This document shows, one piece after another, positions 25,048 to 55,862 of a stretch of DNA of 64,000 nucleotides. Every line of letters begins with the position of its first letter. The stretch's first letter is position 1. The notes under the pieces are model-generated. The model saw only the letters and a program-made list of their open reading frames with translations, had not been told where the DNA came from and did no database searches. Made by a program: the position numbers and the translations under genes. Source of the stretch: an uncultured bacterium (GTDB lineage Bacteria; Babelota; Babeliae; Babelales; Babelaceae); the NCBI GenBank assembly GCA_963848965.1, contig CAWKFG010000001.1:352001-416000 (forward strand), given 5' to 3'.

Positions 25048-25123
25048 GCGCCCGTAGCTCAAAGGATAGAGCGCCAGACTTCGAATCTGTAGGCTGTAGG
25101 TTCGAGTCCTACCGGGCGCGCCA
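25048..25123 (+). tRNA. tRNA-Arg(TCG); integration site
   Basis: Acceptor stem GCGCCCG/CGGGCGC, D arm TAGCTCA, anticodon loop CT-TCG-AA, T loop GGTTCGAGTCC, encoded CCA. Confidence 0.95.
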
Positions 25124-26569
25124 TGCTTGACGATCGTTACAATTTATGATTGCATCAAAGGGTTTTCTCACGTCGTAGAGCACTTTTTCATCACTTACCC
25201 GTAAGTTCAGAAGTACGAGAGTGATTAAGAGTCTCCTTTCTTCAACTTCAGAACTCATAAATAAGTCGTATGCTCGATTTGCTAGATCTAGTATATATTT
25301 TGCTGTTATAAAGTAGTTGTCTTGAGCTTCTTGAAATTGCTCAAGTCGGATACTAACATCGATGCTCTCATCCTTAATCATTTGGTAAAATCTGTCATAC
25401 TCGCTATCAGTAATTCTCCCTTTAAGTCTATCAAGGTAAAGATTATCCATCATAGTAGTAAGAGTTTTTTGTCTTTCGTTAAGTTTCTCGACCTCTTTAT
25501 TATGGAAATCCATCTTTTCTTGCTGAACAGCATTCAACGTATCGACAATAGTGGTTAAAATATCTTTAGGTACATGTAAATTTTTAAAAACGGTTGCAAC
25601 TTGCTCAGTAATTGCCTCTTCTCGGAGCCATTTAGCGCCATGTTTGCCCTTAGATTGTGTGCAATGGTAATAGATATAGCCTTTATGTTTTTCAGGAGTT
25701 ATTGCTAGTCCACAGTCTGCGCAGCGTAAAAGACCTCTATAGATATAAGGTAAGCCCGCAAACTTAAATGGTTTTTTATTAAAGCCTTCTTTAACTTGTT
25801 GTACTTGTTCAAAAAGGGAGGGGCTGATAATTATGGGATAACGATGAGGATATTCCTTATTATTCCATTTCATAACGCCACAATAGAAAGTATTTTTAAG
25901 AATGTGATCAAGAAAGCCTTTAGACCAATTAAGGCCATAGGTGTCTTTTATTTTCTGGCATAATAATTGCATAGAGTAAGCACGAGATGCATAAAGCTCA
26001 AAGATCTTTTGGACTATGCCAGCTTCATAATCATCTACAATTATGTCAGTCTTTTCATCATCTTTAGTAATGTTTTTGTAACCGTAGGGCGCCTTTGATG
26101 GCCATTCTCCTTTACGTAGCTTTTGTTCAATAGCTCTTTTAACGTTGTCGCTTATAGCATCTGAATAATACTTTGCTAACCCAAGACTGATACTAAATTG
26201 AAACTTTTCTACAGCAGAAATGCGGCTATTAATTACCTGCCCATCAGAGGCAAAGTGCAGTTCTATCTCATCACGTAGGGCTTTTTCATAAAGGATGGAG
26301 ATACGTTTATCAAAGACATTGCGAGAAAGTCGGTCAACTTTATCGCAGCAGATGGCAACTTTTTCTTGTTGGTTTAAGATAAAGTCGATAATGCGATCAA
26401 AATCGGATCTATCGTTAGAATAGGCGCTTTCATCAAAACTACAAACTTTTATAACTTGAAAGCCTTTGCTTTGGCAGTATCTTTCAAGGCGGGCAATTTG
26501 AGCAGGCAAAGAGTTACCAGCTTCCTTTTGTTCTTCAGTACTTACTCGAGCGATAAGAATAGCCTTCAT
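25109..26569 (-). CDS. Large serine recombinase (integrase); 3' end overlaps the tRNA
   Basis: ARVSTEEQ catalytic Ser, DRLSR, APYGY, recombinase domain, Zn ribbon CADCG...YYHC, coiled coil; last codons WRAR* are antisense to the tRNA 3' end. Confidence 0.93.
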   Translation of the reverse strand: MKAILIARVSTEEQKEAGNSLPAQIARLERYCQSKGFQVIKVCSFDESAYSNDRSDFDRIIDFILNQQEKVAICCDKVDRLSRNVFDKRISILYEKALRDEIELHFASDGQVINSRISAVEKFQFSISLGLAKYYSDAISDNVKRAIEQKLRKGEWPSKAPYGYKNITKDDEKTDIIVDDYEAGIVQKIFELYASRAYSMQLLCQKIKDTYGLNWSKGFLDHILKNTFYCGVMKWNNKEYPHRYPIIISPSLFEQVQQVKEGFNKKPFKFAGLPYIYRGLLRCADCGLAITPEKHKGYIYYHCTQSKGKHGAKWLREEAITEQVATVFKNLHVPKDILTTIVDTLNAVQQEKMDFHNKEVEKLNERQKTLTTMMDNLYLDRLKGRITDSEYDRFYQMIKDESIDVSIRLEQFQEAQDNYFITAKYILDLANRAYDLFMSSEVEERRLLITLVLLNLRVSDEKVLYDVRKPFDAIINCNDRQAWRAR

Positions 26570-26696
26570 ATTTGACTCACGTTATGAAACTAAATTTATT
26601 ATTCTCTACTTATTTTATCATAATGTGAACTGTTTCTATAGGCTTAAATATAAGTGATTGGTTGGGCTTTTGCCATAATCAATCAAGTATCATCTC

Positions 26697-26730
26697 TTGA
26701 CTTTGTGTCGCTTATATAAGACAATATATA
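26697..26730 (+). promoter_or_regulatory. Toxin-antitoxin promoter/operator
   Basis: TTGACT -35 followed by imperfect palindrome TGTCgCTTATATAAGACA upstream of the toxin. Confidence 0.5.
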
Positions 26731-26741
26731 GTATGAGCAGT

Positions 26742-27071
26742 ATGATACAAATTATTTTTTACACTACATCTACGGGAAAGAAGCCTTTTATTGAGTGGCA
26801 AGATGAGCTTGATGTAAAAGCTAAATCAGTTGTCATTACAAGACTTGCTAGAGTAAGATTAGGCAACTTTGGTGACTGTAAACAAATTAAAGAAGGAAAT
26901 GGCATTTGGGAGCTTCGTATTGATTACGGTCCAGGGTATAGAATTTACTTTGGTAAAAGAGGGACAACCGTTGTCGTCTTATTAATAGGTGGGGATAAAG
27001 GAAGCCAAAGTCGTGATATTGCAAAAGCAAAAAGGTATTGGCTCGAATATAAGGGATCCGAATATGAATAA
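26742..27071 (+). CDS. RelE/ParE-family addiction module toxin
   Basis: RLGNFGDCK, ELRIDYGPGYRIYF, GGDKGSQSRDI. Confidence 0.9.
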   Translation: MIQIIFYTTSTGKKPFIEWQDELDVKAKSVVITRLARVRLGNFGDCKQIKEGNGIWELRIDYGPGYRIYFGKRGTTVVVLLIGGDKGSQSRDIAKAKRYWLEYKGSEYE

Positions 27072-27369
27072 AAAAAGAGAACATATACATTATCAAGAAT
27101 GGTTATCGGAAGAGCTTAAAGATCCAAAATTGGCGCTTGCCTACCTTAATGAGGCGCTTAAAGATGAGGATCAAAGAGTATTATTATTAGCTTTAAAAGA
27201 TGTCCTTGAAGCACAAGGAAGTAGTATGACTGCACTTGCTGAGGAAGCAAACTTAAATCGTCAGAACCTCTATCGTATGCTTTCCAGGAAAGGAAATCCT
27301 CGCTGGGATAATTTATCTTCTTTGTTTAACGCTCTTGGCTATCAAGTACAACTTTCATTAAAAAAATAA
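27064..27369 (+). CDS. Addiction module antidote (HTH)
   Basis: AYLNEAL...LALKDV...LNRQNLYRMLSRKGNP; overlaps the toxin stop. Confidence 0.88.
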   Translation: MNKKREHIHYQEWLSEELKDPKLALAYLNEALKDEDQRVLLLALKDVLEAQGSSMTALAEEANLNRQNLYRMLSRKGNPRWDNLSSLFNALGYQVQLSLKK

Positions 27370-27502
27370 AAGTATTTAAGTCTTATAAGTTTACGATTCT
27401 TAGTGCGAGAAGCTAATAGCGTTAGAATTAAGCTACTGAGTCAAAAATTTCAGAGTATAGCTTAGTTTATTTAAGTACTGCTTTAATGGATGGAGGCCAG
27501 TC

Positions 27503-27658
27503 ATGAAATGCGCAGTAAATTATAAAGAAGGGTTACTAGAAAGATTAAAAGATCCTGAATACAGCGTGGCTTATTTAAATGCTTGTTTAGAGGATGAGGA
27601 CCCTCGAGTATTTTTGCTTGCACTTAAAGATGTTATCGAAGCTTATGATAAAGCTTAA
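27503..27658 (+). pseudogene. Truncated antidote paralogue
   Basis: LKDPEYSVAYLNACLEDEDPRVFLLALKDV matches the first half of 27064-27369; HTH missing. Confidence 0.75.
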
Positions 27659-28776
27659 AGTTTTGTCAGTTTTAACGGTTTAAACGTTATTATATGTTCA
27701 CGTATTGTGTTAAAGGGGCTTTGATTCAGCGGTAGCTTTATCTTATTTACATCGGCCATAAGGCGATACCAGCCTCTTTTATTGGAGTGTGCAAACATAG
27801 CTCTTAATTCTCGTATAGTTACTAATTCAAGGGCTTGTTTTAGACCATATATTTGTAGAATATGCTTTGGATTAAGATCAAGGTTGTTTAATATTAAAGC
27901 TGAGAGTGAGGCTTTTCCATTTGGTGCTCTATAGTCAAGCAAAGTTGGTCTTTTGCTTTCTAGCTCATCAAGGTAATGCAATAGTACCTTTTTTGAAGTA
28001 GAGATCTTGAAGAGACTTTTAAATGTTAAATCTGATTTAATGTTTAAAGTTTTAAAAAGCTGCTTGATTTTCTGACGCTTATTTAAACGAACTTCCATAC
28101 GTAGGATTTCTAATTTTTTTCTTTGTCGCAATGTACCAAAGATATTAAGCTGTATGGCGCTATCTTTTTCTAATGCTCGTTTGCTGCTTTGTTTTGCCTT
28201 TTCAAGATCTTTAATCTTATCGTAAAATGCAACTTCATAAGAGTTACAGTGCCATTTATAGCCATGACCTTCATTGCGATAATCTGTTTGGTTCACATCA
28301 AGCGATAGTTTTATATTAGCTTCTTTGATTTTATTAATGTAATGATAGGGAGTAGAGCCATCTGTTAGGGTAATGTTTTTAGAGTAATGAATGGCATTGA
28401 TTGAAGCTTTAGCAAGTGCTGGAGCAGAAGTTACTACGCCCATTGTTTCTAGAACTGCGGTTAATTTTTGAGTAACCAATGAGAAATCTTTGCTTTGTAG
28501 CTCATCAAAGTTATTACCGAACAATAATTTGGGCAGCGATAACTCTACTTTAAGTATTACTTCTAGTTTATCTTTAGAGTTAATCTGCTTAAAGAGGGTA
28601 AGCCGTGGTTTATATATACTATTAAGTAACTCTTTTTTGGTTGGGTTTTGCTTTGATTGCATGTAAATAGAGCCTGAAGAATTATCTAGAATCCATCGGG
28701 CAGATGGTTTAAAATTATCTGGAGCCTTAATGTTAAATGTATCGCTGCTTAACATTAAGATGATGGTATCAATCAT
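27655..28776 (-). CDS. Putative rolling-circle replication initiator (phage/plasmid gene II/X, Rep_trans-like)
   Basis: MIDTI start, SLPKLLFGNN, FYDK (candidate catalytic Tyr), LRMEVRL. Confidence 0.7.
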   Translation of the reverse strand: MIDTIILMLSSDTFNIKAPDNFKPSARWILDNSSGSIYMQSKQNPTKKELLNSIYKPRLTLFKQINSKDKLEVILKVELSLPKLLFGNNFDELQSKDFSLVTQKLTAVLETMGVVTSAPALAKASINAIHYSKNITLTDGSTPYHYINKIKEANIKLSLDVNQTDYRNEGHGYKWHCNSYEVAFYDKIKDLEKAKQSSKRALEKDSAIQLNIFGTLRQRKKLEILRMEVRLNKRQKIKQLFKTLNIKSDLTFKSLFKISTSKKVLLHYLDELESKRPTLLDYRAPNGKASLSALILNNLDLNPKHILQIYGLKQALELVTIRELRAMFAHSNKRGWYRLMADVNKIKLPLNQSPFNTIREHIITFKPLKLTKL

Positions 28777-29489
28777 AGACTTTATGCCATACGTTAGTGT
28801 TCGATAGTATCTTTTTAAAGATAAAGCAGCTGCTAATAAAAACAAGGGGTAGTAAACCTTATGATTTATTGATTATTACGAGTGTTGAAATAATGCTTCT
28901 AACCCAATTTTACGTGTGTATCAATGGAAATAGCTCAAAATTATTTATGGTAAGTCTTTTTTTGTCTGTGATATAAAACCATTAAGCCTTATCAGATAGT
29001 TTATTCCAATTAATTTGTGAAATCGTTTTTTCTTCTGAGTCATTGAAAAACCTTATTAATTGGCATGTTATGATCACTTTTTTGATAAACAGCTTGCTAT
29101 GCTCTAAATTGTTGTTCAATATACTGAACAACAATAATTGCCTTATCGAGCAGAGTTGGCTATCTAAACTATAGCGAATTAAGCTCTTAGTTTTTTGGAC
29201 AGCGCCAATGATAGAAGGTTCTACAGAGACTATGTAAGCGCTATGGCTGTTGCTATGAGAGACCCAAAGAACAGAGTGCAGTATGAGCTACATGATATCT
29301 TCTTGTAAAAGTTATGCTCTTATATTAGAATGAACGTTGTAAAATACTATCCTCTTTATCTATTAAATTTAGCTGGCTTACAATACAACCTAACAATAAG
29401 GTGTTAGATCACCAACATAAACTTGATTACTGGCTTAAAGCTTTCAATGAATAAGTGATGATAAAGTTAGCATAAGAAAAGGCTCTTAT

Positions 29490-30184
29490 ATGAGTTTACT
29501 TAAGAAAATAGATGCGAGCCATAGTGCAAGGGCTACGTTAGGAATAATCTATATTCTTTGGGTATGTATAGCATGGTCAATTGTTGGGTTTTATAAATTC
29601 TTTTTCTATTCAGAGATATTCAATTTAGATCCGTTAATAAGTACGATGGCCAAAGAGCTAACTCGCTTTTTCGTTTTTATTGGGCCTATTCTCATTTTTA
29701 TACTGTATAATATAAAAAAACCGTGGTATAGATGGCTGGGATTGTATGGATATAGGAGAGGGGCTCTATTTATAAAACAACTGTCTTAGCAATTCTCTAT
29801 AGTGTGATTGGTTCACTTATTAATATCTATGGTTTTCATAAAACTGCTCACCTTTCATCAATTTCACCGACATTTTGGCTTACAGCTTTCTCCTTGAGTA
29901 TTATTATGGAAGAGCTTGCTTTTCGCGGTTTTTTGTTTTACTTATTTGAAGGGTGGAATAAAAATGTAATCGTGCTAGTAACATCATTAGCGTTTGCTGC
30001 AAAACATATTCCAGGGTGGTTCTTTTTTCCTGGAGAACTAAGTCCGCTAGGATTCGTTAGTGACTTTTGTATGGTTTTTTTTGTAGGTTGTATCTTAGGG
30101 TATCTCTATCTAGCAACGCATTCTATCTGGGCAACATCATTAATTCATGGCATCAATAACTTGATTGTTGAGCTATTCAAATAA
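29490..30184 (+). pseudogene. Frameshifted CPBP (CAAX/Abi) intramembrane protease
   Basis: EELAFRG, FAAKH and HGINN in the second ORF; first ORF supplies N-terminal TM helices. Confidence 0.75.
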
Positions 30185-30261
30185 TTTCGTGTTTTCCAGC
30201 GCTTTATTAGAGTAGCTATATGCTTGTACAAATTTAAATGATTAACTGTTAACTATAGGGC

Positions 30262-30453
30262 TTAATACCAAAAAAAGAGAAGCCTGGATAGTTGGGAGGG
30301 TGGTCTTGATCTTAACCTGGTTATCCGTAAACATGCTGTATAAGTAACCCCTGAAGGGTTTTCTAACGACCATCGAGCTGATGGTTCAACCTCCGCAGGG
30401 GCATTAATCTGGAGTAATTTATTGCTTAGAAGTAGAATTATAGTGTCAGCCAT
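30262..30453 (-). pseudogene. N-terminal fragment of a Rep paralogue
   Basis: MADTIILLLSNKLLQINAPAEVEPSARW aligns with MIDTIILMLSSDTFNIKAPDNFKPSARW. Confidence 0.8.
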
Positions 30454-30686
30454 CTACTTATAATGTGTTTAGAGAAACAGTAATAGAAAGCAGTTAATAA
30501 TAAAAGAAAGAGCAAGTAAATCCTATCTTTAGATTTACGGCCTTTATTAAGGCTCTTTTGCTTTTCACTTATACGCTTCTCTATTGTTCCAAGTAAAAGG
30601 AAAAGATTTGTAAGGATTGAAGGTTCTCCATTGCTTACAGCTGGGTTTATTGTTATAGATTGTATTTTTGCTGCTTTCATAAACAA
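30438..30686 (-). CDS. Small hypothetical protein upstream of the Rep remnant
   Basis: Basic, hydrophobic C-terminus; overlaps the Rep remnant start. Confidence 0.4.
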   Translation of the reverse strand: MFMKAAKIQSITINPAVSNGEPSILTNLFLLLGTIEKRISEKQKSLNKGRKSKDRIYLLFLLLLTAFYYCFSKHIISRWLTL

Positions 30687-31001
30687 ACTCTCAAAATGAT
30701 GACCCTTAGGTCACCGTAAAGGTTAAACAGATTAAACTTGAATCTTAAAGTTAAGAAAACTTGGCTGTTACATTAGTAAGTTGGCGTTAAATAGCTATCG
30801 TATTGGGCTTTTGCCCAATGATAGGTGGTTCTAAAACAACGTTAACGAGAGTTATAAATGCCGCTATAAAAAGGTTCACAGCACATGGTAATGGATGATA
30901 TATAGTCATGGTATCTCCAAGCTTGTTTTTAAGTTTTTTATACTATTTCATGTTGTTCTAGATATTAATTAACCTCATTGTTATTTATTGTAGCAACAAC
31001 A

Positions 31002-31658
31002 TTATTCAGAGATTCTATTGCTTGCTGAACCTCCCCTACGGCGTTTTTTTTGTATTATCTCTTGAATTTTAGCTAGGGAGGCACCATGGCGAAGTAAGAA
31101 GCGTATTGTTTCTATATAGGCTGCAAGCTCTTGTGTTGTATTCGCTTGAAGCTTTAATACTTGAGATGTTTTAGGTAATGATTTCATTGTTTCCTTTTTT
31201 GTTGGTTTTATGGAGAACTTTATTTCTTGTACTTTCTTTCCTTGATAGACATATTCAACATCTACTTTTAGTTCAGCATTTTGATTAACTTCTGTTATTG
31301 CCTTTTTTAAGACAAAGCGATCAAAATCCTTAAAGTATTGATACTCATGAGATAGTAGACCTAGGTAATCACGAAGTACCTCTACTGAAAGAGTAGGTGC
31401 TTGATGTTCTTCAAGGAAGCATAAACATAACTCATAAAGAGCGAGAGTATATTTACAGGCAAACGTACGTTGAAGCTCTAAGTCTAGCTTGATAGGATGC
31501 CCACAGTATTTAAAAAGATGCTTTACCTCTTGGGAGTATTTGTAATAGCAAGTACCATTATCAAAATATATTGACTCTAAGAGATTAAAGGGCTTTTTTA
31601 AAGGGTTACCAGCGCCTAGAAGGACCACTCCATGTGTAGATGTTATGTCTAAAAGCAA
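31002..31658 (-). pseudogene. Rep_3/RepB-type plasmid replication initiator, 5'-degraded
   Basis: YTLALYELC, LRDYLGL, YQYFKDFDRFVLKKAITEVN, GKKVQEIKF; no clear start. Confidence 0.7.
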
Positions 31659-32159
31659 AGCTTGCTCTTTAACATAACGGGCATTATATGTTTCTAGGTA
31701 GTTTAATGACTCTTTGAAGGATACTTGATGGTAGTGATTAGGAGAGAGGTTATGAGAGGAGTAATCTAATAAAGTAGTTGGTTAACTTTTGTTGGAGTAA
31801 ATTATAGCGATGAGATATGGGTATTAAGGAATAGGGCTTTATTAAATAGCTCTCCATAGTATCTCCTATGATATAAAGTTAATAAAAGTTTTTATTAGAT
31901 TAGCCAAAAGCAAAAGAAAGTCAACGTACAGATAGGGCTTACGCATGAAAAATTACGAGGATCCTATCTCTCAAGCATTCTGAAACATGTCCATTAAAAT
32001 ATACATATAACTTTTGGTAATTTATGTGCTTTAGTTTTAAGTGATTACAGTAGTATAGGCAATAAAGTTAAAACCAAAGGGAACTACAAGGTCCTCTTTA
32101 ACTTTTTTTAATAACGTCGGCGTAATAGTGACATTGCACTCTTGCGCGTCAAAGTCAAC

Positions 32160-32711
32160 TTACTTTTGTGAAGTGACTTGCTCTTTAAGCTCTTGAGGAA
32201 GAGACTCTAACTGCTCGTCTTTAAATTTATCTCGCTGTCTTTGAATATGGTGTATAACTTGTTCTTTAAGTGAAGCAGGATGGGGTAGAACAAGATAGCT
32301 TTTGCCAGGATATATCTTAGAAGTATATGGTATTGCATAACTTGGAACTTCTGGCATATCTTCTAATGCATATCGTTTAAATGCTACCGGTAGATTTTCA
32401 ATGTCTTTGTGGATGTGATTTAGCCAGTCTATCGGTAGCAATGTTGCGGTAATAGTACCTTTACGATCCGGGCATTCTAGTTCTACTTTAGGGGTAGAAT
32501 AATTGGTAAATTCAGGTACGTTGTTATCAGTATAAGCTTCTGGTCTGTGATCCGGCGTTATGACTCTACATTCCTTACCATGAAGTATAAGGTTATTATC
32601 ATTTATTGTAGTTATTGGGACTAGGGGAAGTAGATCGAAAGATGGTACCCCATTTAATGAGAAACTGAACGGCAAACCTAAGAAAATGAAAAACTTTTTG
32701 AAGATAATCAC
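32160..32711 (-). CDS. Hypothetical secreted protein
   Basis: GTG start with RBS GAGGTG; signal peptide. Confidence 0.6.
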   Translation of the reverse strand: MIIFKKFFIFLGLPFSFSLNGVPSFDLLPLVPITTINDNNLILHGKECRVITPDHRPEAYTDNNVPEFTNYSTPKVELECPDRKGTITATLLPIDWLNHIHKDIENLPVAFKRYALEDMPEVPSYAIPYTSKIYPGKSYLVLPHPASLKEQVIHHIQRQRDKFKDEQLESLPQELKEQVTSQK

Positions 32712-32930
32712 GCTGCACCTCTATTTTTATGTGTTATTGTTAATTATACTATTATAGCCTAAAATACTAAACTTATACAACCAAATTGGATTATGCGGGC
32801 GCATAGAAATTTAAAATTCTATTGATTAATAATATACAATTATTTTATTATTTAAATCAAGTAAAATAGTTAAAAAATATTTTAAATAGTAAGCTTATTA
32901 CACTTTATTGAGAAATAGGAGCGACTCTTA

Positions 32931-33809
32931 TTGAACGTAAAGAAAGCGAAACTTGAGGGAGATTCTGCTATTAATAATCTTGCACGAGATTTACAGAACA
33001 CTTTTCCTGGTACAAGAGGATTTTCAAGTCGTAATCTCCGCTACATGGCTAATTTATATGCTACTTACTCTCAGAGTCAAAAATTGCAATCAATGATTGC
33101 AAAAATTAGTTGGACACATAATATAATTATTTTAGATCGTTGTTCTGATATGCTAGAGAGGGAGTTCTATATCAAAATGGCTGCTAAATATGGGTGGACC
33201 TCTCGGATGCTTATGAATTATATAGATAATCAGACTTATGAAAAAACATTACTTAGTGAAACCAATTTTGATAAAAGTCTTCCAGAAAATATCAAAAATA
33301 GGGTAAAACTGGCTCTAAAAGATGATTATACGTTCAGTTTTTTAGAACTTGGAGAAAAGTTTACAGAGTATCAGTTAGAAAAGGCTATATTAAGTAAAGT
33401 TGAACGATTTCTTAACGAGATGGTGGAATCTTTACATTTGTTAGTAGCCAATATCGGCTTGAAGTGGGGATTAAGAGTACTTTATAGATCTACTTCTCTA
33501 TCATCGTTTTTTAAGATGCCTTGTAGCTATAGAGCTGAAAATAGGTCCTTTTATACCTGAGTATATGGGCAAGATGCAATTTTATCTTTCGGTATTAGAT
33601 GATACCGTAAGGATTGACGGAGAAAATCCTTCCATTGGCATTATCCTCTGTAAGGATAAAAATAAGACTATAATAGAATAGCCTTAAAAGATGCAAGCAA
33701 GCCAATTGGGGTAGCAACTTATCAAATGGTTAAGAAGTTACCTCAACAATTAAAAGATCAACTTCCCTCTGTTGAGCAAATTGAGCAACTCCTTGATGAG
33801 TTAGATTAA
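32931..33809 (+). pseudogene. YhcG/DUF1016 PD-(D/E)XK nuclease, frameshifted
   Basis: GFSSRNLRYM, ISWTHN, REFYI, KDDYTFSFL; other frames continue GKMQFYL...ENPSIGIILC. Confidence 0.85.
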
Positions 33810-35165: not shown

Positions 35166-35264
35166 AATTTCAATATACAAAGTAGGGGGCACCAACTTAA
35201 GTAAAGCTTATTTCCCATTTATATAGATTTTTAACTAAACATGTAATAGGTTAAGGAGCACGTA

Positions 35265-47082: not shown

Positions 47083-47457
47083 CTAAACAGACCATGTGCT
47101 TTTCTTAATCTCTTCTAGTGGTTCATTTGTTACTATAAGCTCATTAATCTTAGCTTCTGTAATGTTAATTTTAGGACCACTTGTATATTTCGTAACGGTT
47201 AAAGTATTTTCGCTATTAAAATCAATTGAAATTTCGTTAAAAGTTAGTTGTTTATTAAAGATTAGTGACAGTATTTTTTTTCCGCCTAAAAATTTTTTCA
47301 TAGCTGGATCAGAAGATAAAATTTCCATTTCACGGGGTTCTAATTGAATTACCTTTTTGACTTTTTCTTCCATTGCCATAAGATTAAATGAAAGAGTTAC
47401 CAGCTTTATAGCAATTAGTAAAGAAAACAGTCCCATAAATAGTTTTATTTGTTGCAT
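47083..47457 (-). CDS. Hypothetical secreted protein
   Basis: Signal peptide LMAME. Confidence 0.55.
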   Translation of the reverse strand: MQQIKLFMGLFSLLIAIKLVTLSFNLMAMEEKVKKVIQLEPREMEILSSDPAMKKFLGGKKILSLIFNKQLTFNEISIDFNSENTLTVTKYTSGPKINITEAKINELIVTNEPLEEIKKSTWSV

Positions 47458-47854
47458 ATAAAGCCTTTCTTGAGTTTATGTTTACTAAAGAATCCTTATC
47501 TCATTAACTGTAGAGCCTACTTATGAAATTGTCTGAACTTCAGTAATGTTTGAAGTGTCAAACTAAAATTATTGCTTAGCGCCTTTACTTAAAAAAAGTC
47601 TACTATACCTTTATCTTTATGTCCACTCACATGGAAGGAATTGTGTCGATGAAAAATAAAAGATTTTTTTTGATAAGTAGTAGTGTTTCCATACTCTTGC
47701 TTAAAAGTAATGGAAATGCAATGTATGAAGGTGGGGTAGATCAACGTATCTCTAGCAATCAAGCAAAGATTGACTCATTAAAAAGAGCTTTCTCCTAAAA
47801 AGCGCTGCAACCATAGAGTTTTTAACCAGAATTTTTTCTAAAAAAATTTAATTA

Positions 47855-47883
47855 TTGACCGACAGTCGGTCATATGGTATAAT
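47855..47883 (+). promoter_or_regulatory. Sigma70 promoter overlapped by a TetR operator
   Basis: TTGACC-N17-TATAAT containing the palindrome TGACCGAC-A-GTCGGTCA (47856-47872). Confidence 0.85.
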
Positions 47884-47924
47884 TGTTATGATTTAAGTTA
47901 GAAACTTTAAAACGAAGGGCAATT

Positions 47925-48560
47925 ATGGTCAGAACTGTAAAAAAACCTACCGAACGTAAGCTTGATATTATAGTAGCTGCTAAACATTTATTTCAAACTA
48001 AGGACTATGAAAAAACTACAATGCAAGATGTGATGGAGAGCTTGGGTATTGCCAAAGGGACTATCTATCATTATTTCTCGTCTAAACAGGCACTTCTTGA
48101 AGCAGTAGTTGAACATATTGTTGATAGTAATATTGAGCTTATGCAAGTACATGTTCAGAAAGCAAAAGGTAATGCCCTAAAAAAGCTGCAAGTTCTCATT
48201 GAAACAGGTAATATAGCTGCTGCTCATGCAAATATTTTGGAAAGCATTCATCGACCTGGCAATGAGGCAATGCATGTCCGCCTTTTGGCTACAACATTAA
48301 TTAAACAGGCGCCCTTATATGCGCAAGTAATCAAACAGGGGTGCGATGAAGGAATTTTTAAGACAAGTGCTCCCTTGGAGTGTGTAGAATTTATTCTTTG
48401 TGCTGTTCAATTTTTGACCGATAGTGGAATTTATCCTTGGAAAAATGAAGATGTTTTACGCAGAATACAGGCATTTCCTACTATAATTGAATCACTTCTT
48501 AAGGCCCCTAAAGGATCATTCACATTTTTATTAAATATATTTTTAAACAATAGAGGATAA
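47925..48560 (+). CDS. TetR/AcrR-family regulator
   Basis: TTMQDVMESLGIAKGTIYHYFSSK. Confidence 0.93.
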   Translation: MVRTVKKPTERKLDIIVAAKHLFQTKDYEKTTMQDVMESLGIAKGTIYHYFSSKQALLEAVVEHIVDSNIELMQVHVQKAKGNALKKLQVLIETGNIAAAHANILESIHRPGNEAMHVRLLATTLIKQAPLYAQVIKQGCDEGIFKTSAPLECVEFILCAVQFLTDSGIYPWKNEDVLRRIQAFPTIIESLLKAPKGSFTFLLNIFLNNRG

Positions 48561-49454
48561 ATGAATACGATAAAACAATTACATGTCTATCAACCGATGC
48601 TATTTTTTCTAAGCGCTTTATTTATTGGAAGTATAGCTTGGTTTAGTGCTGCTTATAGTAGTTATCAACCATCTTTAAATTATTTGTTATTTCCTTTAAT
48701 CCTTGCAGGCATGAGCAGTCCAACCATCGCAGCATTAATGATGTTTGCTAAATCAAGAGATAAAGATTTATGGGGTGATTTTTGCCAAAAATTGCGATTT
48801 GATAGAATTAAAATACGTTTTCTTCCCCTTCTTTTGCTTATACCTTGTTTAATTTTACTATCAATTGCCATTTCCTTATTATTTGGGTTTTCTTCAGATC
48901 AATTTTCACTAGCCTCTATTCCAGATCCCGCTTTGAAAGGGAAAAATATTTTAGCAATTGTTTTGATAGTTCTTCTATCCTGTAGTTTAGAAGAAATTGG
49001 TTGGAGAGGATACGGTATTGATAGTTTAAAGAGTAAATACAACTTGTGGAAAACATCTTTGATCTTCGCCTCCATTTGGGCTTTGTGGCATGTTCCTGCA
49101 TTCTTTATTAAGAATGGCTATTTTCAACAAGAGGTTTGGAATTTAGGTATTATACATACAGCTAATTATTTTATAGGCTATTTTCCAATTACTATTTTGA
49201 TAAATTGGCTCTACATTAAAAATAATCGCAGCATACTAATTGCTCTAGTATGTCATGCAAGTATGAATCTTTTCTATGGTCTTTTGCAAATCCAACCATT
49301 TACCAAAATTATTATCACGCTTCTATTATTGCTAACTGCAAGCATAATTGTTATCAGAAACAAAAAAATGTTTTTTATTAAAAACTCAGATAGCAGCATC
49401 AAGAGCAGCGCCATTCTCTACGAGTATTTCTATCACCTTTTTACGACCATTTAA
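48561..49454 (+). CDS. CPBP (CAAX/Abi) intramembrane protease
   Basis: EEIGWRGY, WALWHVP, HASMN. Confidence 0.9.
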   Translation: MNTIKQLHVYQPMLFFLSALFIGSIAWFSAAYSSYQPSLNYLLFPLILAGMSSPTIAALMMFAKSRDKDLWGDFCQKLRFDRIKIRFLPLLLLIPCLILLSIAISLLFGFSSDQFSLASIPDPALKGKNILAIVLIVLLSCSLEEIGWRGYGIDSLKSKYNLWKTSLIFASIWALWHVPAFFIKNGYFQQEVWNLGIIHTANYFIGYFPITILINWLYIKNNRSILIALVCHASMNLFYGLLQIQPFTKIIITLLLLLTASIIVIRNKKMFFIKNSDSSIKSSAILYEYFYHLFTTI

Positions 49455-49500
49455 CCTAGCAATTATTAGCGCAGTTCGATCACCACAACTTTTACTATTA

Positions 49501-50429
49501 GAGCCTATCCGTAAATTCATAATTTGTTAAAAATAATGATAGCTACGGCAAAATAAACCATAGCCATATAGTTTAAAGCGTATTTTTCATAACGAACAAA
49601 CAAGCGCCTAAACCGATTGAGCCATGAATGCGTAGGTTCAATGAACCAGCGTTGATAACCTTCTGGTACACCATAAACTTTATTTTTAGCTTTTCTTTTA
49701 TTTTTCATTATTTTAGGTACATAGCTGTAATGCAGCAAGTAGGCTCTTATTTGCGCTGAATCATAAGCTGCATCTAAACTTATAATTTTGCTATAAGGCA
49801 TGGATATATGCTTAGGAATGGATAATAAGGTATCCAAAAATAGCTGAGAATCGTGCTGATTAGCGCTACCTAACGCACAACCGATAACTATACCGTTTTT
49901 ATCAGTTAATATGCTTCGTTTTGTTCCTAATTTTCTCCTATCTACTGGGCTCTTGCCTGTTTTCTCTGAACCCAAGGGCGCTTTAATATAAACACAATCA
50001 GCAGCTTGAGTTTCTAGACTAAGTCCGTGAATTTTATCATATTGGTCAAGTTCAGCATACCATAAATATTTAAAGAACTCGACAGACCTTAATTTTTGAA
50101 ACAGTTTATGGACAGCAGAGTACGATCCAAAGCATCTAGGCAATGCATTCCATTGTATACCTGTCCTTAACAGATAATAGATACCATTTATTGCTCTTTT
50201 CATATCCATTGAGGGTCTTCCCCGCTTTGATTTTTCGCTTATTTTTGGTATTATTTTTTCTATATCTTTCCATAAATTTGGAGTTATAAGAAACTTCTTG
50301 TTTATGCATACTTCATAACAATTTTTTGTATGACACATGTGTAAATCTCCTTCTTGATCGTTGATCGCGATTCTTTAGAAGGAGATTTTATTATATTTTC
50401 AACCTTTTTTCCATTTTAGAGATAGGCTC
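49501..50429 (-). mobile_element. IS5-family insertion sequence
   Basis: Terminal IRs GAGCCTATC / GATAGGCTC with TTA target duplication (49498-49500, 50430-50432). Confidence 0.9.
49517..50338 (-). CDS. IS5-family transposase
   Basis: GIYYLLRTGIQWNALP, GTKR, DAAYD, RWFIEPTHSWLNRFRRL. Confidence 0.92.
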   Translation of the reverse strand: MCHTKNCYEVCINKKFLITPNLWKDIEKIIPKISEKSKRGRPSMDMKRAINGIYYLLRTGIQWNALPRCFGSYSAVHKLFQKLRSVEFFKYLWYAELDQYDKIHGLSLETQAADCVYIKAPLGSEKTGKSPVDRRKLGTKRSILTDKNGIVIGCALGSANQHDSQLFLDTLLSIPKHISMPYSKIISLDAAYDSAQIRAYLLHYSYVPKIMKNKRKAKNKVYGVPEGYQRWFIEPTHSWLNRFRRLFVRYEKYALNYMAMVYFAVAIIIFNKL

Positions 50430-50809
50430 TTAATATTAACTTTATGTAAGAGGAGCTCTAGTTGTGTAATATTGTCTGTTTCAGCTGCTGTGAAAAGTTG
50501 CTTTGTGTCTGCTTATTTAGGAACTGTTGCATTGCATTAGTGCTAATAAACAATCCAATAAAAGAAATAAAAATAATTCTTTTCATAGGGTCCTTCTGGG
50601 CTTTTTGGGAAATTTTATACAAACAAATGATTGAGATGCTCTTTTACGTTTAAGTCTTTTCTTCTTGATTGAATATTCATTAGTAGTATACTACATTGCT
50701 CCCTTTACTATGCGCTCAGTAGAGGCATTTGTTCCTGTCTTTGCTATAATAGTTAATAAAGGCATTGCTTTCGCCTCTCCTTTTTAGTATAACTTAAGAG
50801 CGCTCTTGC

Positions 50810-50910
50810 AACTGCCTTGCGCTTGGAAGGTGCTTGCCTTGCCTGTCTGCCGTAACTTTAGTGAAGGCTGGATATCTTCCCTATAAATAAGGGAGGCCTA
50901 CGGCGATTTT
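50810..50910 (+). repeat. ~90-100 bp dispersed repeat (second copy 52083-52171) upstream of effector-like genes
   Basis: AACTGCCTTGCGC...GAAGGCTGGATATC...GGAGG..TACGGC in both copies. Confidence 0.7.
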
Positions 50911-50935
50911 TACTAAAAGCTTTTATGAGGATAGT

Positions 50936-51898
50936 ATGTGTTACAGTTTATTGCTTTCTCTCTTCATCGTAGTAGTATTACCTGCTTTAGGTATGGAACC
51001 TGATTGTTCAATCCGTATAACTGCCAAAGGAGATAAGAATGTACGTATTCCACTAGTCTGTCTTACACAAGAAGTAGCTCAGCTATTACAGAACAAGGAC
51101 ATTTGCCAATGGTTTAAAAATATTTCTCCTGAGCTCATTCAAACTCTTGTTCGGTTTTGTAACTTTATCCGAATGGAATCTAAAGTTGATACTCAATCTG
51201 GTATGAAAAAATTTGTTATACTCAATATCAGTTTTGAAGATATGCCAGAGTTTTTAAGGGTGCTCGTAATCCTTTCTTTACATCAGAAAGTTATTACCGA
51301 AGCTATACGTTACTATGTTGAAAAGGCAGAAAAACGTAAGATATACCTTAACAATTACCAGTTTCATACTGACGCTGAAAAAGATAGCTCTATAAAGTTA
51401 GAGATAGCTAAATGGTATTTTTTAAAATATGGTTCACACTTAGATATACCTCAAGGTTCCTTTCCATCGATATCGATACATGATCTTTTAGAGGCAGAAA
51501 AGAAGATAACAGCAACTACAGTGAGCAAGATGGTAGGAAAACTTGCACAAATTGATACTTATTGTCAACTAGATGATATAGTTATTATGTTAAATAATTT
51601 TCGTTTAACTTCTCTTGATGGAATGAACGAGTTGCTTATACAGCTTAAGGTGTCTAAAGAGAAAATAGGGGCTATAGATTTGAGGGGACATTATACTAAT
51701 AAAAATCTGATTAAACTATCCATCAACAGTCTTGATTCTGCTGATTATAAAGCTCTTAAGGTCCTTTACTTAGATAATGAATCAGTTTTTCTTCCTGGTA
51801 AAGTGTCTGCTCCTATTGTAAGTAGTGCATGGCAGCCTGTAGTAGATAAAGAGCCTGTGATTATTAAAATGCAGCCTGCACATAGCGTAATAAATTAA
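50936..51898 (+). CDS. Hypothetical secreted protein (degenerate LRR-like C-terminus)
   Basis: Signal ALGME; LNNFRLTSLDG, LKVLYLDN. Confidence 0.6.
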   Translation: MCYSLLLSLFIVVVLPALGMEPDCSIRITAKGDKNVRIPLVCLTQEVAQLLQNKDICQWFKNISPELIQTLVRFCNFIRMESKVDTQSGMKKFVILNISFEDMPEFLRVLVILSLHQKVITEAIRYYVEKAEKRKIYLNNYQFHTDAEKDSSIKLEIAKWYFLKYGSHLDIPQGSFPSISIHDLLEAEKKITATTVSKMVGKLAQIDTYCQLDDIVIMLNNFRLTSLDGMNELLIQLKVSKEKIGAIDLRGHYTNKNLIKLSINSLDSADYKALKVLYLDNESVFLPGKVSAPIVSSAWQPVVDKEPVIIKMQPAHSVIN

Positions 51899-52294
51899 AG
51901 GCTAACGAAAGAGCATTGTTGATAATGAATTAAGGAGCATCTTCATTGATGCAGCTGAGATTCGTAGATCGTATGCATATTAAGGTTAAAAAACGGGGAG
52001 AGCAAGACTCCCTAGCCATGTACCCACTACCCTCATTATCAAGAGATACATACTTCTTCATAACTTAAGATAGAGACTTCATAACTGCCTTGCGCCTGAC
52101 TGTGTCCGCCAAAGCCTTTAGGCGAAGGCTGGATATCTCCCATATTAATAAAGGAGGATTACGGCAAATTTTCTCTAAATAAATTGACATCTAAATAATA
52201 AGTACATAGGCTGTGGGATTAACAAGGTTAGTTAGGATATAATGTCTCAATTTTTCTTAAGCTAAAAAATTGTATGTGAGCGGGAGTTGGAGCC

Positions 52295-55200
52295 ATGGTA
52301 AAAAACTATATATTACTTTTTCTTTTTATTAATCAATCTTTACAAGCTATGGAGTCTAAACATAAGCTTGAAGACTGTGAAAATAGTAGTCGTAACTATA
52401 AAAAACCATGTTTTTCCCTTTCTGATGCAGTTGTATATCAACCTGATCTGATGGTTGCTTCTCCATTTGTATATAAAGCTTTAGAAGCTATGAAGCCTAA
52501 ACATAAGCTTGAGGACGGTGAAAATAGTAGTCGTGACTGTAAAAAACCACGTTTTTCCCTTCCTGCTCATCTGGTGGCCGCTTCTCCATTTGCATATCAA
52601 GTTGTTCGAGCCGCAAGCAAATTTATCAGAGGTAATAGACCACCAAGAAATAACTCTATTTTACTTGATAAAATTACCACCGTTACTATAAAGGCAAAAG
52701 AGTCACAGAGTAATGGTATTCCATTATTCAGAAATTGCTTTGAACTGTCTTTTCTTAGAGAGTTGGCTGCAAATAACAAAGATCGAGAAGTATGGCTAGA
52801 GCTTGTCAATGAAGAAGAGTGTGTCATGCATACTCCATTTTCTATGCCTATACTTAAGGTTATAGCAGAGCTTTTGGCAAATTATGAGGCTGTAAAAAGT
52901 TTGGGTTTTGATATAACTCAAACATATGTAGGTTTACATGAAGTACTTGCAAGATACTCTATAGACACAGAAAGTAAGAAAGCTGAACTGATACAAGCAA
53001 TCCGTTTTTTTAAACTACCTTTTTTTCAAGCAATAGAGACACATACTTTTGGAAAAGCTCTTCAGCTTTTAGAGCAAGCAAAATCAACAGATACTTTATA
53101 CAGCACAGTAGAAAGAGAGAATCTTAAGACTTTGATTGAAGCAGATAGCCAGCATGCGCAAAAAATGAAAGTGCAAGGAACCTCCTATGTGGATTCCATA
53201 TCAGAGAATCAGCTTAATATGACTCCAAGCAAGAAGCGACGTATCGCGTTTACGTTAGCAAAAACGTATGAAGCACAGAAGTATATGCTTGGCTTCAATG
53301 ATGTTTTAGATGATCGTTCATGGCAAGATCTTGAAATAGTAGCGGGATCTCAATCAAGTCCTAAATCTTTTTTTGCTTTTTGTATTGATCAAACGGTAAC
53401 CGAATTAGGGAAAGCGCTTCTTTACAAAAGAATAGTGTATCCTACTAGTAACGTTACGTTTCTCAGGCAACAGCAAGAGATACTTAAAGCCCTTATCTCT
53501 CATCATAACTTTAATCAAATAGATAGATGCCTTAAAGAGCTTGGCGAGATTGAAAAAGAAAATAATATGCTATCATTTTGGGATAATGACGAACTTAACT
53601 TATGCGTCAAAAGTACTGAAATTAATGTTCCTCGTTGGCAACAGTTTTCTAAATGGTTAAATGAATGTTCATTGACAGTTGAAATACTAAGAGAAGGTCC
53701 GCAGCTTTATTTGGTAATTATAGTAGCAGAGGTTAACAAGCTTAAAAATAAGATTGTTCTTAACCTAAAAAATTTTCAATCATATCTTAATTTAGATAAA
53801 AATAAGGTTATAGAAATTATTAAAGATGTGTCTAGCTTTGAAATGTTTGTAGTTAAAGAAGTTGTTTTCAATCCTTTTATAGCATCAATCCTTATGGCAA
53901 AAATTAGTGGAGCTGTAGGTGGAGCTGCAGGTGGGTACGCAGGTTATGGATTTCAATTTTTATCAATGATAAGTAATGCAGATGCTATGAAGGACATGAT
54001 TGTGCTACATTTTGCTTTACAAAAGAAGCTCATGCTCGTAGCTCAGTATATTGCTAAAATTAAAGAGCTTTACACTTTGCTTAAAACAGATGTTCAAGAT
54101 CTTGAAAGTACGTTGCCTTTTTTAAAAGCATTAAATATAGAAAGATTGCAACAGGATGCTCAAACTGCTCGAATGTATGGTGCAAACAATATATTTAGTC
54201 AATTTTGGGCAAAAGTAAGTTCAGCATCTGATATTGATAATTTATTAAACAGCCTTGAAACAGCTACATTCCAAGGAGAGCCTAGCAAATACTCTTTTAC
54301 TGGTCGTATAGTTTCAGCCTATCGCATTATGCATGATTGTAAGGATAAATTAATCCAACCGCTTGGTGCTGTTGGAGAACTTGATATGTATATGTCTATA
54401 GCCCGTCTTTATAAAAAGTACAAAGAACAGAATCTGGAATTTTGCTTACCTACCTATAATGTCTCGCCGTCTCCTTTTATAAGGATGAATCAGTTCTGGA
54501 ATCCTATGGTAGGGAACACAGCTGTTCCTAATTCGCTTACAATTGGAGGGAATCTGCCGCAAAATGTGGTAATTACTGGGCCTAACGGAGGGGGAAAATC
54601 TACTGTTATGAAAAGTGTTGTTCTTGCAGTTATTATGGCTCAAACGCTAGGAATTTGTCCAGCGCAAAGCATGGAGTTTACACCATTTGTAAAAATTCGC
54701 AGTTACTTAAATATGACTGATGACATTACTAAAGGACAATCACTTTTTCAGGCTATAGCTCAAAGAGCTGTCGATATTCATAAGGACGTTGCAGGAGTTT
54801 CTCAAGGTGAATGTTCTCTTACGCTTTTTGATGAATTATTCGATGGAACAGAAGCTCAAGCAGGAGAAGCATTGGCATGTGCTTTTATTCAAGACCTTAA
54901 TAAAATGAAGCATAATATTTGTTTACTTATAACGCACTTTCAACAATTGCCTCGTATAATTGATAACATGTCAGTGTCTAGGAATTTTCAAGTAGCAGTT
55001 GATCCCAGCCAAGCTAAGCTTATCTATCCTTACAAGCTTGAATCTGGGGTATCTAAAGAATCAGTTGCATTTAAAGTATTGGCAGAAAGGGGTTTTGATA
55101 AGGAGCTTCTAGGTAAAGCAGAAAAAGTCCGACAAACTTTGAGATTTAAGCATGCTTTTGAAGAATTGCAAGAGCTTATGATGCAGGGACAAGAACTACC

Positions 55201-55330
55201 AGAGGAATTGCAGCGTGATCCAGAACTTATTACGGCTATAAGAAATCTTATAAATCTAAGACATTACCATGCTTTTAGGAGTCTAGCTAAAAAAAAAGAT
55301 AGCCCAAAGTCCCTTGGTAGAGACCTCTAG
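52295..55330 (+). CDS. Secreted MutS-related ATPase (domain V) protein
   Basis: Signal LQAME; ITGPNGGGKST, DDITKGQSLF, LFDELFDGT, LITHF, YKLESGVS. Confidence 0.85.
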   Translation: MVKNYILLFLFINQSLQAMESKHKLEDCENSSRNYKKPCFSLSDAVVYQPDLMVASPFVYKALEAMKPKHKLEDGENSSRDCKKPRFSLPAHLVAASPFAYQVVRAASKFIRGNRPPRNNSILLDKITTVTIKAKESQSNGIPLFRNCFELSFLRELAANNKDREVWLELVNEEECVMHTPFSMPILKVIAELLANYEAVKSLGFDITQTYVGLHEVLARYSIDTESKKAELIQAIRFFKLPFFQAIETHTFGKALQLLEQAKSTDTLYSTVERENLKTLIEADSQHAQKMKVQGTSYVDSISENQLNMTPSKKRRIAFTLAKTYEAQKYMLGFNDVLDDRSWQDLEIVAGSQSSPKSFFAFCIDQTVTELGKALLYKRIVYPTSNVTFLRQQQEILKALISHHNFNQIDRCLKELGEIEKENNMLSFWDNDELNLCVKSTEINVPRWQQFSKWLNECSLTVEILREGPQLYLVIIVAEVNKLKNKIVLNLKNFQSYLNLDKNKVIEIIKDVSSFEMFVVKEVVFNPFIASILMAKISGAVGGAAGGYAGYGFQFLSMISNADAMKDMIVLHFALQKKLMLVAQYIAKIKELYTLLKTDVQDLESTLPFLKALNIERLQQDAQTARMYGANNIFSQFWAKVSSASDIDNLLNSLETATFQGEPSKYSFTGRIVSAYRIMHDCKDKLIQPLGAVGELDMYMSIARLYKKYKEQNLEFCLPTYNVSPSPFIRMNQFWNPMVGNTAVPNSLTIGGNLPQNVVITGPNGGGKSTVMKSVVLAVIMAQTLGICPAQSMEFTPFVKIRSYLNMTDDITKGQSLFQAIAQRAVDIHKDVAGVSQGECSLTLFDELFDGTEAQAGEALACAFIQDLNKMKHNICLLITHFQQLPRIIDNMSVSRNFQVAVDPSQAKLIYPYKLESGVSKESVAFKVLAERGFDKELLGKAEKVRQTLRFKHAFEELQELMMQGQELPEELQRDPELITAIRNLINLRHYHAFRSLAKKKDSPKSLGRDL

Positions 55331-55797
55331 ATGCAGAGCCAATGGACCTAGAGGTTTTGTCTGAAATTGAATTGTACAGCACTTTAAAAAATAAGTTTTT
55401 GGTTGACAACAGGAGTTTTTTCGTACTATAGTCGAGCTCAAGTATCAACCTATAAAAAAGGGATCTCTTATGAACGATATACGTATAGCTACTAAAGCTT
55501 CTTCAGCTTTAGCTAAAAAACGAGAAAGAGTCAAAGAGCTTGTAAAAGCGTCAATGATTACCCAAGGCTATTACTATAATGGAATGGAAGGGCCGCCTTT
55601 GAGAGTAGGATATGGCGCGAGGAAGAACGTTAAAGCTTAATCAAACTTTATGTATGCTTAAGCTACTTTAGATGCTGTACACAAAATTAATGGAAGATTT
55701 AAGAGCTCATTATGCTAATCTTGATGCAATGCAAGAAAGGCATAAGAATGAAAATGAAGATAATCCTAGAGCAGCAAAGTAGCTAAGCATACTCCTA

Positions 55798-55862
55798 CTA
55801 TTCCATATCAAGCTTTTTGTTCAGAAAATAGTGCTACTTCATAGCACCATGCGTCCAAGAAG
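55798..55862 (-). repeat. Degenerate att-like tail with the same 22-nt hairpin insertion
   Basis: FLDA-[TGGTGCTATGAAGTAGCACTAT]-FLNKKLDME*. Confidence 0.6.

Follow-up and report, generated by a model that had tools for sequence, protein, structure and literature searches.

Tandem units at a tRNA-Arg gene of an uncultured Babelaceae bacterium: a probable accretion array of a serine recombinase with an exchangeable C-terminal tail

Composite islands of the staphylococcal cassette chromosome (SCC) type, such as SCCmec and ACME of staphylococci, depend on the large serine recombinases (LSRs) CcrAB and CcrC and are integrated at the 3' end of rlmH. Integrons hold chromosomal arrays of cassettes, and their attC sites are the targets of a group of insertion sequences (ISs), the IS1111-attC elements. 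In the tyrosine recombinases IntP/IntX of the myxophage Mx8 and in the SSV1-type integrases, attP lies inside the integrase gene and integration changes or splits the protein; to our knowledge, arrays of alternative tails are not known for these enzymes. For the tycheposon islands of Prochlorococcus, a preprint gives tyrosine recombinases as the enzymes of 910 out of 937 (bioRxiv 10.1101/2020.12.28.424599), and the 2014 paper on the Islander database states that serine integrases are not known to target tRNA genes (PMC4383910). The locus described here lies in a 64,000-nucleotide stretch (the window; positions 352001-416000 of contig C1) of the genome of an uncultured bacterium of the family Babelaceae (the host genome, G000; 1.73 Mb in five contigs). 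An intact LSR gene, int, ends at the 3' end of a tRNA-Arg(TCG) gene, and the adjoining 31 kb are divided into units by related sequences, called tails here, which resemble alternative C-termini of the recombinase. The best reading of the window, to which we assign a probability of roughly two in three, is site-specific accretion of elements at the tRNA gene followed by decay, with the array now frozen.

The tRNA-Arg(TCG) gene occupies 25048..25123 of the window on the plus strand (ARAGORN; Rfam tRNA model, 71.5 bits). Int, of 486 residues, is encoded on the minus strand (25109..26569) and carries the Pfam domains Resolvase (PF00239), Recombinase (PF07508) and Zn_ribbon_recom (PF13408). The Resolvase match (E 8.5e-21, residues 3-156) covers the catalytic domain with the serine nucleophile, and in an alignment of 81 homologues the A-R-V-S motif (residues 7-10) varies little if at all. 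The AlphaFold2 model of one homologue, P0059, predicts long helices at 335-382 and 388-415 after the zinc ribbon, as expected of the inserted coiled coil. Judged by its sequence, Int is predicted to catalyze attP x attB integration. Its five last codons including the stop (W-R-A-R-stop) are read from the tRNA 3' end in antisense, which bears out the preliminary description of an integrase Trp at the CCA of the tRNA. A protein search returned 2170 homologues at E<=1e-10, the closest with 72% identity, and the source names among them, which include Dependentiae, Babeliales and TM6, place the host in the Dependentiae. Both tblastn and a hidden Markov model (HMM) of the LSR family, run over 82,728 six-frame fragments of the host genome, give Int as the sole LSR of the assembly. 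The nearest NCBIfam models are XisF, CcrB and CcrA, all of which it scores far under the cut-offs. With 77.7 bits against a cut-off of 900 for CcrB, 74.7 against 700 for CcrA and 38.4 against 900 for CcrC, Int is not a Ccr. The locus shares with SCC islands an LSR, a conserved gene whose 3' end is the target, tandem units split by short repeated sites, and units without a recombinase beside one that bears it. It differs from them in the recombinase, in the use of a tRNA end instead of rlmH, in the apparent location of attP inside the recombinase gene, by which a 31-codon tail would be exchanged, and in its Dependentiae host.

The tails were also compared with recombinases from outside the host. 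Among the best 120 of the 2170 homologues, whose C-termini were compared, almost all end a few residues past a conserved W, and the extra residues read as tRNA antisense. P0059, which is metagenomic, runs past this W into a contiguous 33-residue tail of the type found in the window, and seven further homologues of the 120 carry a second tail type. A word-based protein search with the tail region of P0059 matched P0059 itself only. In a sample of 58 tails fetched from other genomes, five sites have the tail contiguous with the int open reading frame (ORF). The contiguous tail of P0059, together with the intact distal tails of relatives discussed below, supports the earlier idea of a homology between the tails and the C-terminal ends of related serine recombinases, with the crossover at the CCA/TGG of the tRNA.

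The DNA around this crossover has the layout of an attachment site. The last 20 nt of int ahead of the TGG (25124..25143, minus strand) would be the P' arm of attP, and its final 8 nt are an exact inverted repeat (8/8) of 8 nt in tail 3 of the window, with a 10-nt spacer between them. The family consensus, from 19 int 3' ends and the 58 tails, likewise has an 8-bp inverted repeat and a 10-bp spacer that starts with TGG. The end of an outer GAAC motif falls at +24 in 18 of the 19 tRNA arms. Of the 58 tails, 27 gave no match to the motif pattern, and among the other 31 it falls at +30 in 29; the outer motif of the tails is thus shifted 6 nt outward relative to the tRNA arm. This shift resembles that of the LI integrase, for which the zinc-ribbon motif is described as lying 5 bp further inward in attB than in attP (PMC3783163). 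The site agrees with an LSR attP in its length of ~50 bp and its imperfect dyad, and with the known attB in having a half-site ~5 bp shorter than that of attP. Taken together, the dyad and the motif shift make the int 3' end plus tail look like a regular LSR attP; the last bases of the tRNA would then be the B arm, forming attL with the int 3' end, and the crossover would fall in the 6 nt, counted from the TGG, that the two share. The first 6 nt of every tail type are the last 6 nt of a tRNA, and beyond them the tails diverge from the tRNA.

As far as their account goes, the A118/LI, Bxb1 and phiC31 integrases (PMC3783163) have the same domain set, imperfectly palindromic attP sites of ~47-50 bp and an attB outer motif ~5 bp nearer the centre. 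In contrast to the family described here, their genes do not overlap attP and their attL and attR sites are inert without a directionality factor, while the present arrays imply the reuse of occupied sites. In the IntP/IntX and SSV1-type systems attP is also inside the integrase gene, whereas the enzyme here is a serine recombinase. In addition to its features as a site, the tail retains the marks of a coding sequence. Over the 58 tails, the mean column entropy at codon positions 1, 2 and 3 is 1.17, 0.85 and 1.53 for codons 11-20 and 1.09, 0.82 and 1.52 for codons 21-31, and the periodicity is flat past codon 31 and upstream of the TGG. This 3-nt periodicity to codon 31 argues for selection on the translated peptide, and not on the DNA site alone.

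From these data, the following course of events may be proposed. In the free circular form, the int ORF would run through the crossover into the conserved tail of ~31 codons. Integration at the tRNA gene would replace this tail by the few codons that the antisense strand of the tRNA supplies, and the displaced tail would mark the distal end of the unit, where it would be the P arm of the junction. Every further integration would add one unit and one tail. In the window, which would represent the tRNA-proximal 31 kb of such an accretion array, only the unit next to the tRNA has an integrase, the others being integrase-less; at least one of them is a decayed element (40669-45844) and one a minimal HigBA toxin-antitoxin (TA) unit. 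An IS110-family element interrupts tails 1 and 4, remnants of such elements are found at tails 2 and 5, and a 22-nt insert splits tails 3 and 5, so that Int could regain an intact tail from none of the P arms in the window. On this scheme we infer an order of integrations along the array, and the tail may be important for the activity of Int.

The preliminary description had listed five related tails on the minus strand, three of them starting at a tRNA-like GGGGG(C/T)(A/G)CCA. Three heads, each a TGG with a C-rich run after it, are present at 35194, 40668 and 45844. An HMM built from seven tails of other genomes only, run against 129,589 six-frame fragments of the host genome, recovers tail 1 (34026-33958, E 3.3e-9), tail 4 (44676-44596, E 4.9e-9) and, more weakly, tail 3 (40625-40572, E 0.043), and it also finds further arrays. 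Tails 2 and 5 are the weaker members: neither has a TGG head, tail 2 (35994 downward) reaches E 1.9 only, tail 5 (55861-55798) is not among the best 30 matches, and both are recognized by DNA repeats common to other tails, D5 (47 nt at 85-87%, including the right tip of the IS) and D12 (41 nt at 88%). All five lie on the minus strand. Tail 1 consists of a head of TGG plus 12 nt (35180..35194) and a distal part of 27 codons and stop (33937..34020). The remnant of tail 2 (35953..36015), which is 92.5% identical over 40 nt to the IS end and its flank, joins the last ~21 nt of an IS right end to tail codons; its head and the body of the IS have been deleted. Tail 3 (40551..40668) is complete from TGG to stop and is frameshifted by a 22-nt hairpin insert at 40626-40647. 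Tail 4 has its head at 45830..45844 and its distal part at 44587..44670, the latter, as in tail 1, found by the HMM. The headless remnant of tail 5 (55798..55861), which matches D12, has the same insert at 55828-55849, in the same codon as tail 3; elsewhere in the genome this insert is found only in the duplicate contig C3, described below.

As a consequence of these insertions, no tail rebuilds a full-length Int as it stands, since tails 1 and 4 are interrupted by a 1159-bp IS110-family element and tails 3 and 5 by the 22-nt insert. Read in frame, tails 1, 3 and 4 meet a stop after 12, 15 and 12 codons, and the proposal that crossover at the CCA would restore the recombinase therefore fails for the DNA in its present form. 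A strict regular expression for the tail found none in the window for the same reason, that every tail there is interrupted. With every P arm in the window broken, the array appears to be frozen and recombination within it would be abolished.

The IS copies in tails 1 and 4 are identical over 1159 bp and occupy the same position. Copy 1 (34021..35179, minus strand; Pfam PF01548, PF02371) is inserted 15 nt past the TGG of tail 1 and encodes a DEDD transposase of 314 residues (34059-35003, minus strand); copy 2 (44671..45829, minus strand; repeats D1 and D3) is in tail 4. A third copy, on contig C4, has the same position in a tail, so that all three genomic copies are found 15 nt after a tail TGG. 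A 70-nt right-end remnant of a related element (55856..55925, minus strand; D3), 81% identical to the intact copies, abuts tail 5. The transposase scores 200.1 bits against a cut-off of 140 with the NCBIfam model of IS110 RNA-guided transposases (NF033542) and has both the DEDD and the Transposase_20 domain. The right end of the element lies ~38 nt past the stop codon, and the left end comprises 176 non-coding nt with a predicted bridge RNA (fold z-score -4.26), in which a stem carries a 7x7 internal loop. On the 5' side of this loop, an 8-mer is identical to the left target of the tail on C4 (reached in 69 of 5000 shuffles) and the 3' side has an 8-mer that complements the right target of tail 2 (156 of 5000 shuffles), the guide match to tails 1 and 4 of the window being weaker. 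An Rfam scan gave only the tRNA at the gathering threshold and nothing relevant in the IS at E<=5. In the available account of IS621, the left and right target guides are on the two sides of an internal loop (PMC11208160), and the geometry predicted here, as judged by the target loop alone, would be the same. The elements also share the DEDD and Transposase_20 domains and a long left end, which here is predicted to fold with putative guides for the left and right targets on the two sides of a loop. In contrast to IS621 as described there, the element here has for its natural target an attachment arm that belongs to another mobile element, and the apparent core is TT instead of CT.

The contents of the units were studied by scanning 35 ORFs of the region against Pfam, with PHROGs and NCBIfam in addition. 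The TA pairs and the Nudix, PfpI and ankyrin genes of the first description were recovered, whereas the methyltransferase reported with them was found by neither Pfam nor NCBIfam in the ORFs tested. Genes within the units are in mixed orientation on both strands. The int-bearing unit (26697..33560) contains a Gp49/HI1420-type TA pair, an ORF of 396 residues without a family, fragments of a CAAX protease, a fragment of a Rep_3-type initiator and a DUF1016/YhcG fragment. The unit of ~0.8 kb between tails 1 and 2 has a HigB/HigA-type TA pair as its only genes (35265..35900, minus strand; PF05015, PF01381). The third unit (36029..40438) has Nudix and DJ-1/PfpI genes and three ORFs without a family. 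In the decayed fourth unit (40875..44520) are an ankyrin gene and an ankyrin fragment, a helix-turn-helix (HTH) gene, an N-terminal fragment of DUF1016 and an HI1420 fragment. The fifth unit (45941..55330) has ORFs without a family, a TetR regulator, a CAAX protease, an IS4/IS5-type DDE transposase and a protein of 1011 residues with MutS domains. This last gene (52295-55330) has MutS domains III and V only, is unusual as MutS-like cargo, and contains near its start a direct repeat of 107 nt (84% identity, copies 141 nt apart). A separate 46-nt repeat of 89% identity is shared by 37557-37602, downstream of the PfpI gene, and 56071-56116, upstream of an SRPBCC gene.

Evidence of a former recombinase was found beside tail 3. 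A stretch of 23 codons (40712..40780, minus strand) corresponds to catalytic-domain positions 93-115 of an LSR gene, is located 44 nt from the TGG of tail 3 and has 73-76% DNA identity to Int 26230-26291 (repeat D8); the LSR HMM gives it E 0.31 genome-wide. The statement that no tail is followed by another integrase thus holds for intact genes, and tail 3 has this remnant beside it. The fourth unit has, at 43209-43439, the 3' end of a second copy of the 396-residue ORF, 80.5% identical to 27656-27891 over 236 nt, and backbone fragments are common to 25124-33933 and 40669-44586. Between the remnant and tail 3 lies a two-hairpin flank (40669..40709, minus strand) that adjoins the TGG and matches in type the trailer found after nine tRNA genes of the host.

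This two-hairpin trailer is found directly after the CCA of 9 of the 33 listed host tRNAs (counted by eye), for instance tRNA-Asp at C4:219922 and tRNA-Leu at C1:325278, and it flanks at least 23 of the 58 sampled tails of other genera. It could be a native terminator, a processing signal or a part of the attachment site.

The recombinase and its tails are widespread in the order. In a survey of 261 genomes, an LSR of the family is present in 94 at a threshold of E<=1e-30. Of the 29 best genome loci, 23 have int and a tRNA gene (Asp, Gln, Glu, Arg and others) overlapping at their 3' ends, and 22 of the 31 int genes with a complete 3' end on metagenome contigs do so as well. Tails were detected by profile search in 113 of the 261 genomes, the host with its 17 matches standing above any other, which has at most seven. 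Single elements, with int at a tRNA gene and one intact tail of ~31 codons on the same strand 5-20 kb away, are found in four genomes (G184, G186, G114 and G004) and at the loci L151, L155, L160, L163, L167, L168 and L189. Tandem LSRs are also found: G144 has three co-oriented LSRs, G158 has at a tRNA-Asn an LSR and then a tail joined to a second LSR, and G241, L157 and L170 have similar arrays. In G187 the LSR is a pseudogene. At another tRNA-Asn (L053, G152:C1:50000-69999, at 2795-5254), the LSR gene is interrupted near codon 440 by an insert of ~1 kb.

Other arrays have many tails, some of them with a recombinase and some with none. On contig C4 of the host, eight co-oriented tails, 1.3-6.8 kb apart, extend over 20 kb up to a tRNA-Arg(TCT) without any integrase, and their units encode AbiEi/Eii, Fic with an HTH partner, ankyrin proteins, DUF4143 ATPases and YhcG fragments. 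At C4:443931-447109, a YhcG/DUF1016 nuclease gene is split by a gene for a group II intron reverse transcriptase/maturase (557 aa). Three further tails of the host precede a tRNA-Glu and one precedes a tRNA-Asp. G238 has five tails at a tRNA-Asp with no LSR found, and G165 has three in an array without an LSR. In the G238 array, a native-type trailer adjoins the distal-most tail, and cassette-type hairpin flanks adjoin the inner tails and the tRNA, as would be expected from an addition of units at the tRNA. Distal to the LSR at a tRNA-Asp, G027 has six tails 0.7-0.85 kb apart (L144, G027:C8:33000-52999, at 1347-5290), and only sites of 35-92 bp are repeated there, with 84-97% identity. The units between them are single TA units encoding ParE, Gp49/HTH, PIN-like, HI1420 and ParE/RelB proteins. 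It is the most integron-like array of this analysis.

The chromosomal context indicates an insertion. For the comparison of loci, 41 genomes, all from outside the genus of the host, were searched. In the three relatives that keep the synteny of the left flank (G024, G010 and G008), a protease gene is followed by tRNA-Arg(TCG) and then, 3-7 nt on, by tRNA-Arg(CCT). In the host, the same two genes are on the same strand 81.5 kb apart (C1:377123 to 458603), and the genes past tRNA-Arg(CCT) are syntenic with G008. The contrast in spacing implies that the window is the proximal part of a very large insertion. The DNA past 55.9 kb, which starts with genes for SRPBCC, a UvrA paralogue and an amine oxidase, may be part of the insertion too; tRNA-Arg(CCT) itself has no tail directly next to it.

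Accretion followed by decay is favored for the window because of the int remnant beside tail 3, the shared backbone fragments and the tandem LSR arrays of relatives, where G144, G158, G241, L157 and L170 would show the undecayed state. The growth of tycheposons, as far as it is described in the preprint, is similar in its repeated integration at a tRNA, in the partial tRNA copies between elements, in the fragmented integrases and extra partial tRNAs, and in the combination of replication modules with cargo; unlike the tails, the junctions in that account are true partial tRNAs, and no swap of an integrase tail is described in it. Several observations weigh against this reading. The canonical rules of LSRs forbid attP x attL recombination and do not account for the addition of units at an occupied tRNA. 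The LSR remnant is short, with E 0.31 alone, and the 41-nt trailer-type flank between it and tail 3 means that this is not a simple junction of int and tail. The AlphaFold2 model of P0059 gives a pLDDT (per-residue model confidence) below 50 for the tail and thus no structural support for its role. For the left target of tail 1, the longest exact match to the guide of the IS is only 6 nt, as in 1346 of 5000 shuffles. Short, unrelated, integrase-less cassettes with near-identical sites, such as the six TA units of 0.7-0.85 kb in G027 and the eight units on C4, are poorly explained by the decay of full elements. Short TA units of this kind fit small non-autonomous units better than the decay of 10-kb elements.

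The last point leads to the strongest alternative, in which the integrase-less units are non-autonomous cassettes, each with its tail and attachment site, that are moved by an LSR in cis or in trans at tRNA-anchored arrays. As an account of the window we regard such a platform as rather unlikely, including its nested excision, which would run from the tRNA/int junction to one or another distal tail and give a circle in which Int carries the tail of that cassette. Similarities to integrons are evident in the short unrelated cassettes, the conserved site between them, the single recombinase at one end and the IS with a DEDD transposase on the site; the sites are 50-120 bp long in such arrays, which are widespread (C4, G027, G238 and G165), and TA pairs, Abi, Fic and ankyrin genes are contents like those of chromosomal integrons. 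The flanks in G238 fit the addition of cassettes at the tRNA, the host has 17 tail matches to one LSR, and the tails keep their coding periodicity. On the other hand, none of the cassettes turned up at a second site or in a second array. The two arrays of the host share, by blastn, only the IS, its 70-nt remnant and one match of 94 nt, to which tblastx between them added DUF1016/YhcG only. Several units are plainly made of truncated genes, no recombination directionality factor was identified, and gene orientation within units is mixed. The differences from integrons are considerable as well: the recombinase is of the serine type, no IntI-type tyrosine recombinase being found among the 35 ORFs, a tRNA takes the place of attI as the anchor, the arms are double-stranded, attP-type and peptide-coding in place of attC-type folded sites with co-oriented cassettes, and no Pc promoter is evident, so that the array of unrelated cassettes headed by one recombinase gene is the integron trait that the locus does have. 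Since every tail in the window is interrupted, such a system cannot operate there now. Of the two alternatives offered in the preliminary description, serial accretion with loss of integrases is thus the one favored in the window, and an integron-like array gains support at the level of the family, for which we keep a cassette system served in trans as a live reading.

In its widest form, this alternative would have a tRNA-targeting serine recombinase run a cassette system throughout the Dependentiae that is convergent with integrons. Each integrase-less unit, often with TA or defence genes, would bring its own attP-type arm, which would also serve as a spare C-terminus of 31 codons; excision circles would complete Int with the tail of the cassette and shuttle cassettes between tRNA sites; the choice of tail could tune Int; and the bridge-RNA IS would be specialized on the arms as IS1111-attC elements are on attC. 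We put this forward as a tentative proposal with the odds against it.

An assembly artefact, for instance a misjoin induced by repeats across two IS copies, is very improbable as a partial source of the array. Contig C3 (9474 bp) is 99.55% identical to 35180-44639 of the window, between the IS copies, and several contig ends have foreign, high G+C, which would favor such an error. However, tails 1, 3 and 4 differ in sequence, the same architecture is found on another contig and in other genomes, and the 25 mismatches and 14 gaps between C3 and C1 make C3 look like a variant copy and not the same reads. The ends of C3 coincide with the IS-plus-tail repeat; the contig may be a further copy, come from a variant strain or have been left over by the assembly. 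At the starts of C1, C2, C4 and C5, several ends have a much higher G+C than the genome (~0.37), reaching 0.65-0.66 around two tRNAs at the start of C4 (C4:2989-3279), which suggests chimeric ends or contamination in the assembly.

Two further explanations are very improbable. That the tails are mere repeated flanks carried or created by the IS110-family element would account for the IS or IS-end remnant in four of the five tails of the window and for the IS right tip within D5, and it is contradicted by the tail HMM, which was made without the host genome and still finds the window tails, by the absence of IS110 sequence from tail 3, by the spread of tails through 113 of the 261 genomes, most sequenced examples being without an IS, and by the tails contiguous with int in P0059 and at the five sampled sites. 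That they are tRNA 3' fragments displaced by islands of tyrosine integrases, which duplicate the tRNA end, would explain the shared 6 nt and the tRNA anchors and is contradicted by the 31-codon periodicity, the outward position of the motif, the divergence past 6 nt and the dyad with the LSR 3' end, no tyrosine integrase family having been found by Pfam in the 35 ORFs.

A search of the literature at the level of titles and abstracts, with subscription papers mostly outside it, gave no description of an LSR family with such a tail swap. A serine-integrase family at tRNA genes in 94 of 261 genomes of one order stands against the statement in the Islander paper, as available to us, that such targets are not known (PMC4383910). 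The natural attP/attB pairs of the family, with tRNA ends as attB, could be of interest to those who mine serine integrases as tools. The IS110-family element, seemingly programmed against the attachment arm of another element, would be a natural case of one mobile element disabling another. As attP appears to lie inside int, integration would exchange a conserved tail of 31 residues, which is a possible switch between the integrated and the free state of the recombinase. For the bacteria themselves, whose genomes are reduced and which depend on protists, the arrays at tRNA genes, with their TA, defence and ankyrin genes, seem to be a main way in which genes are gained.

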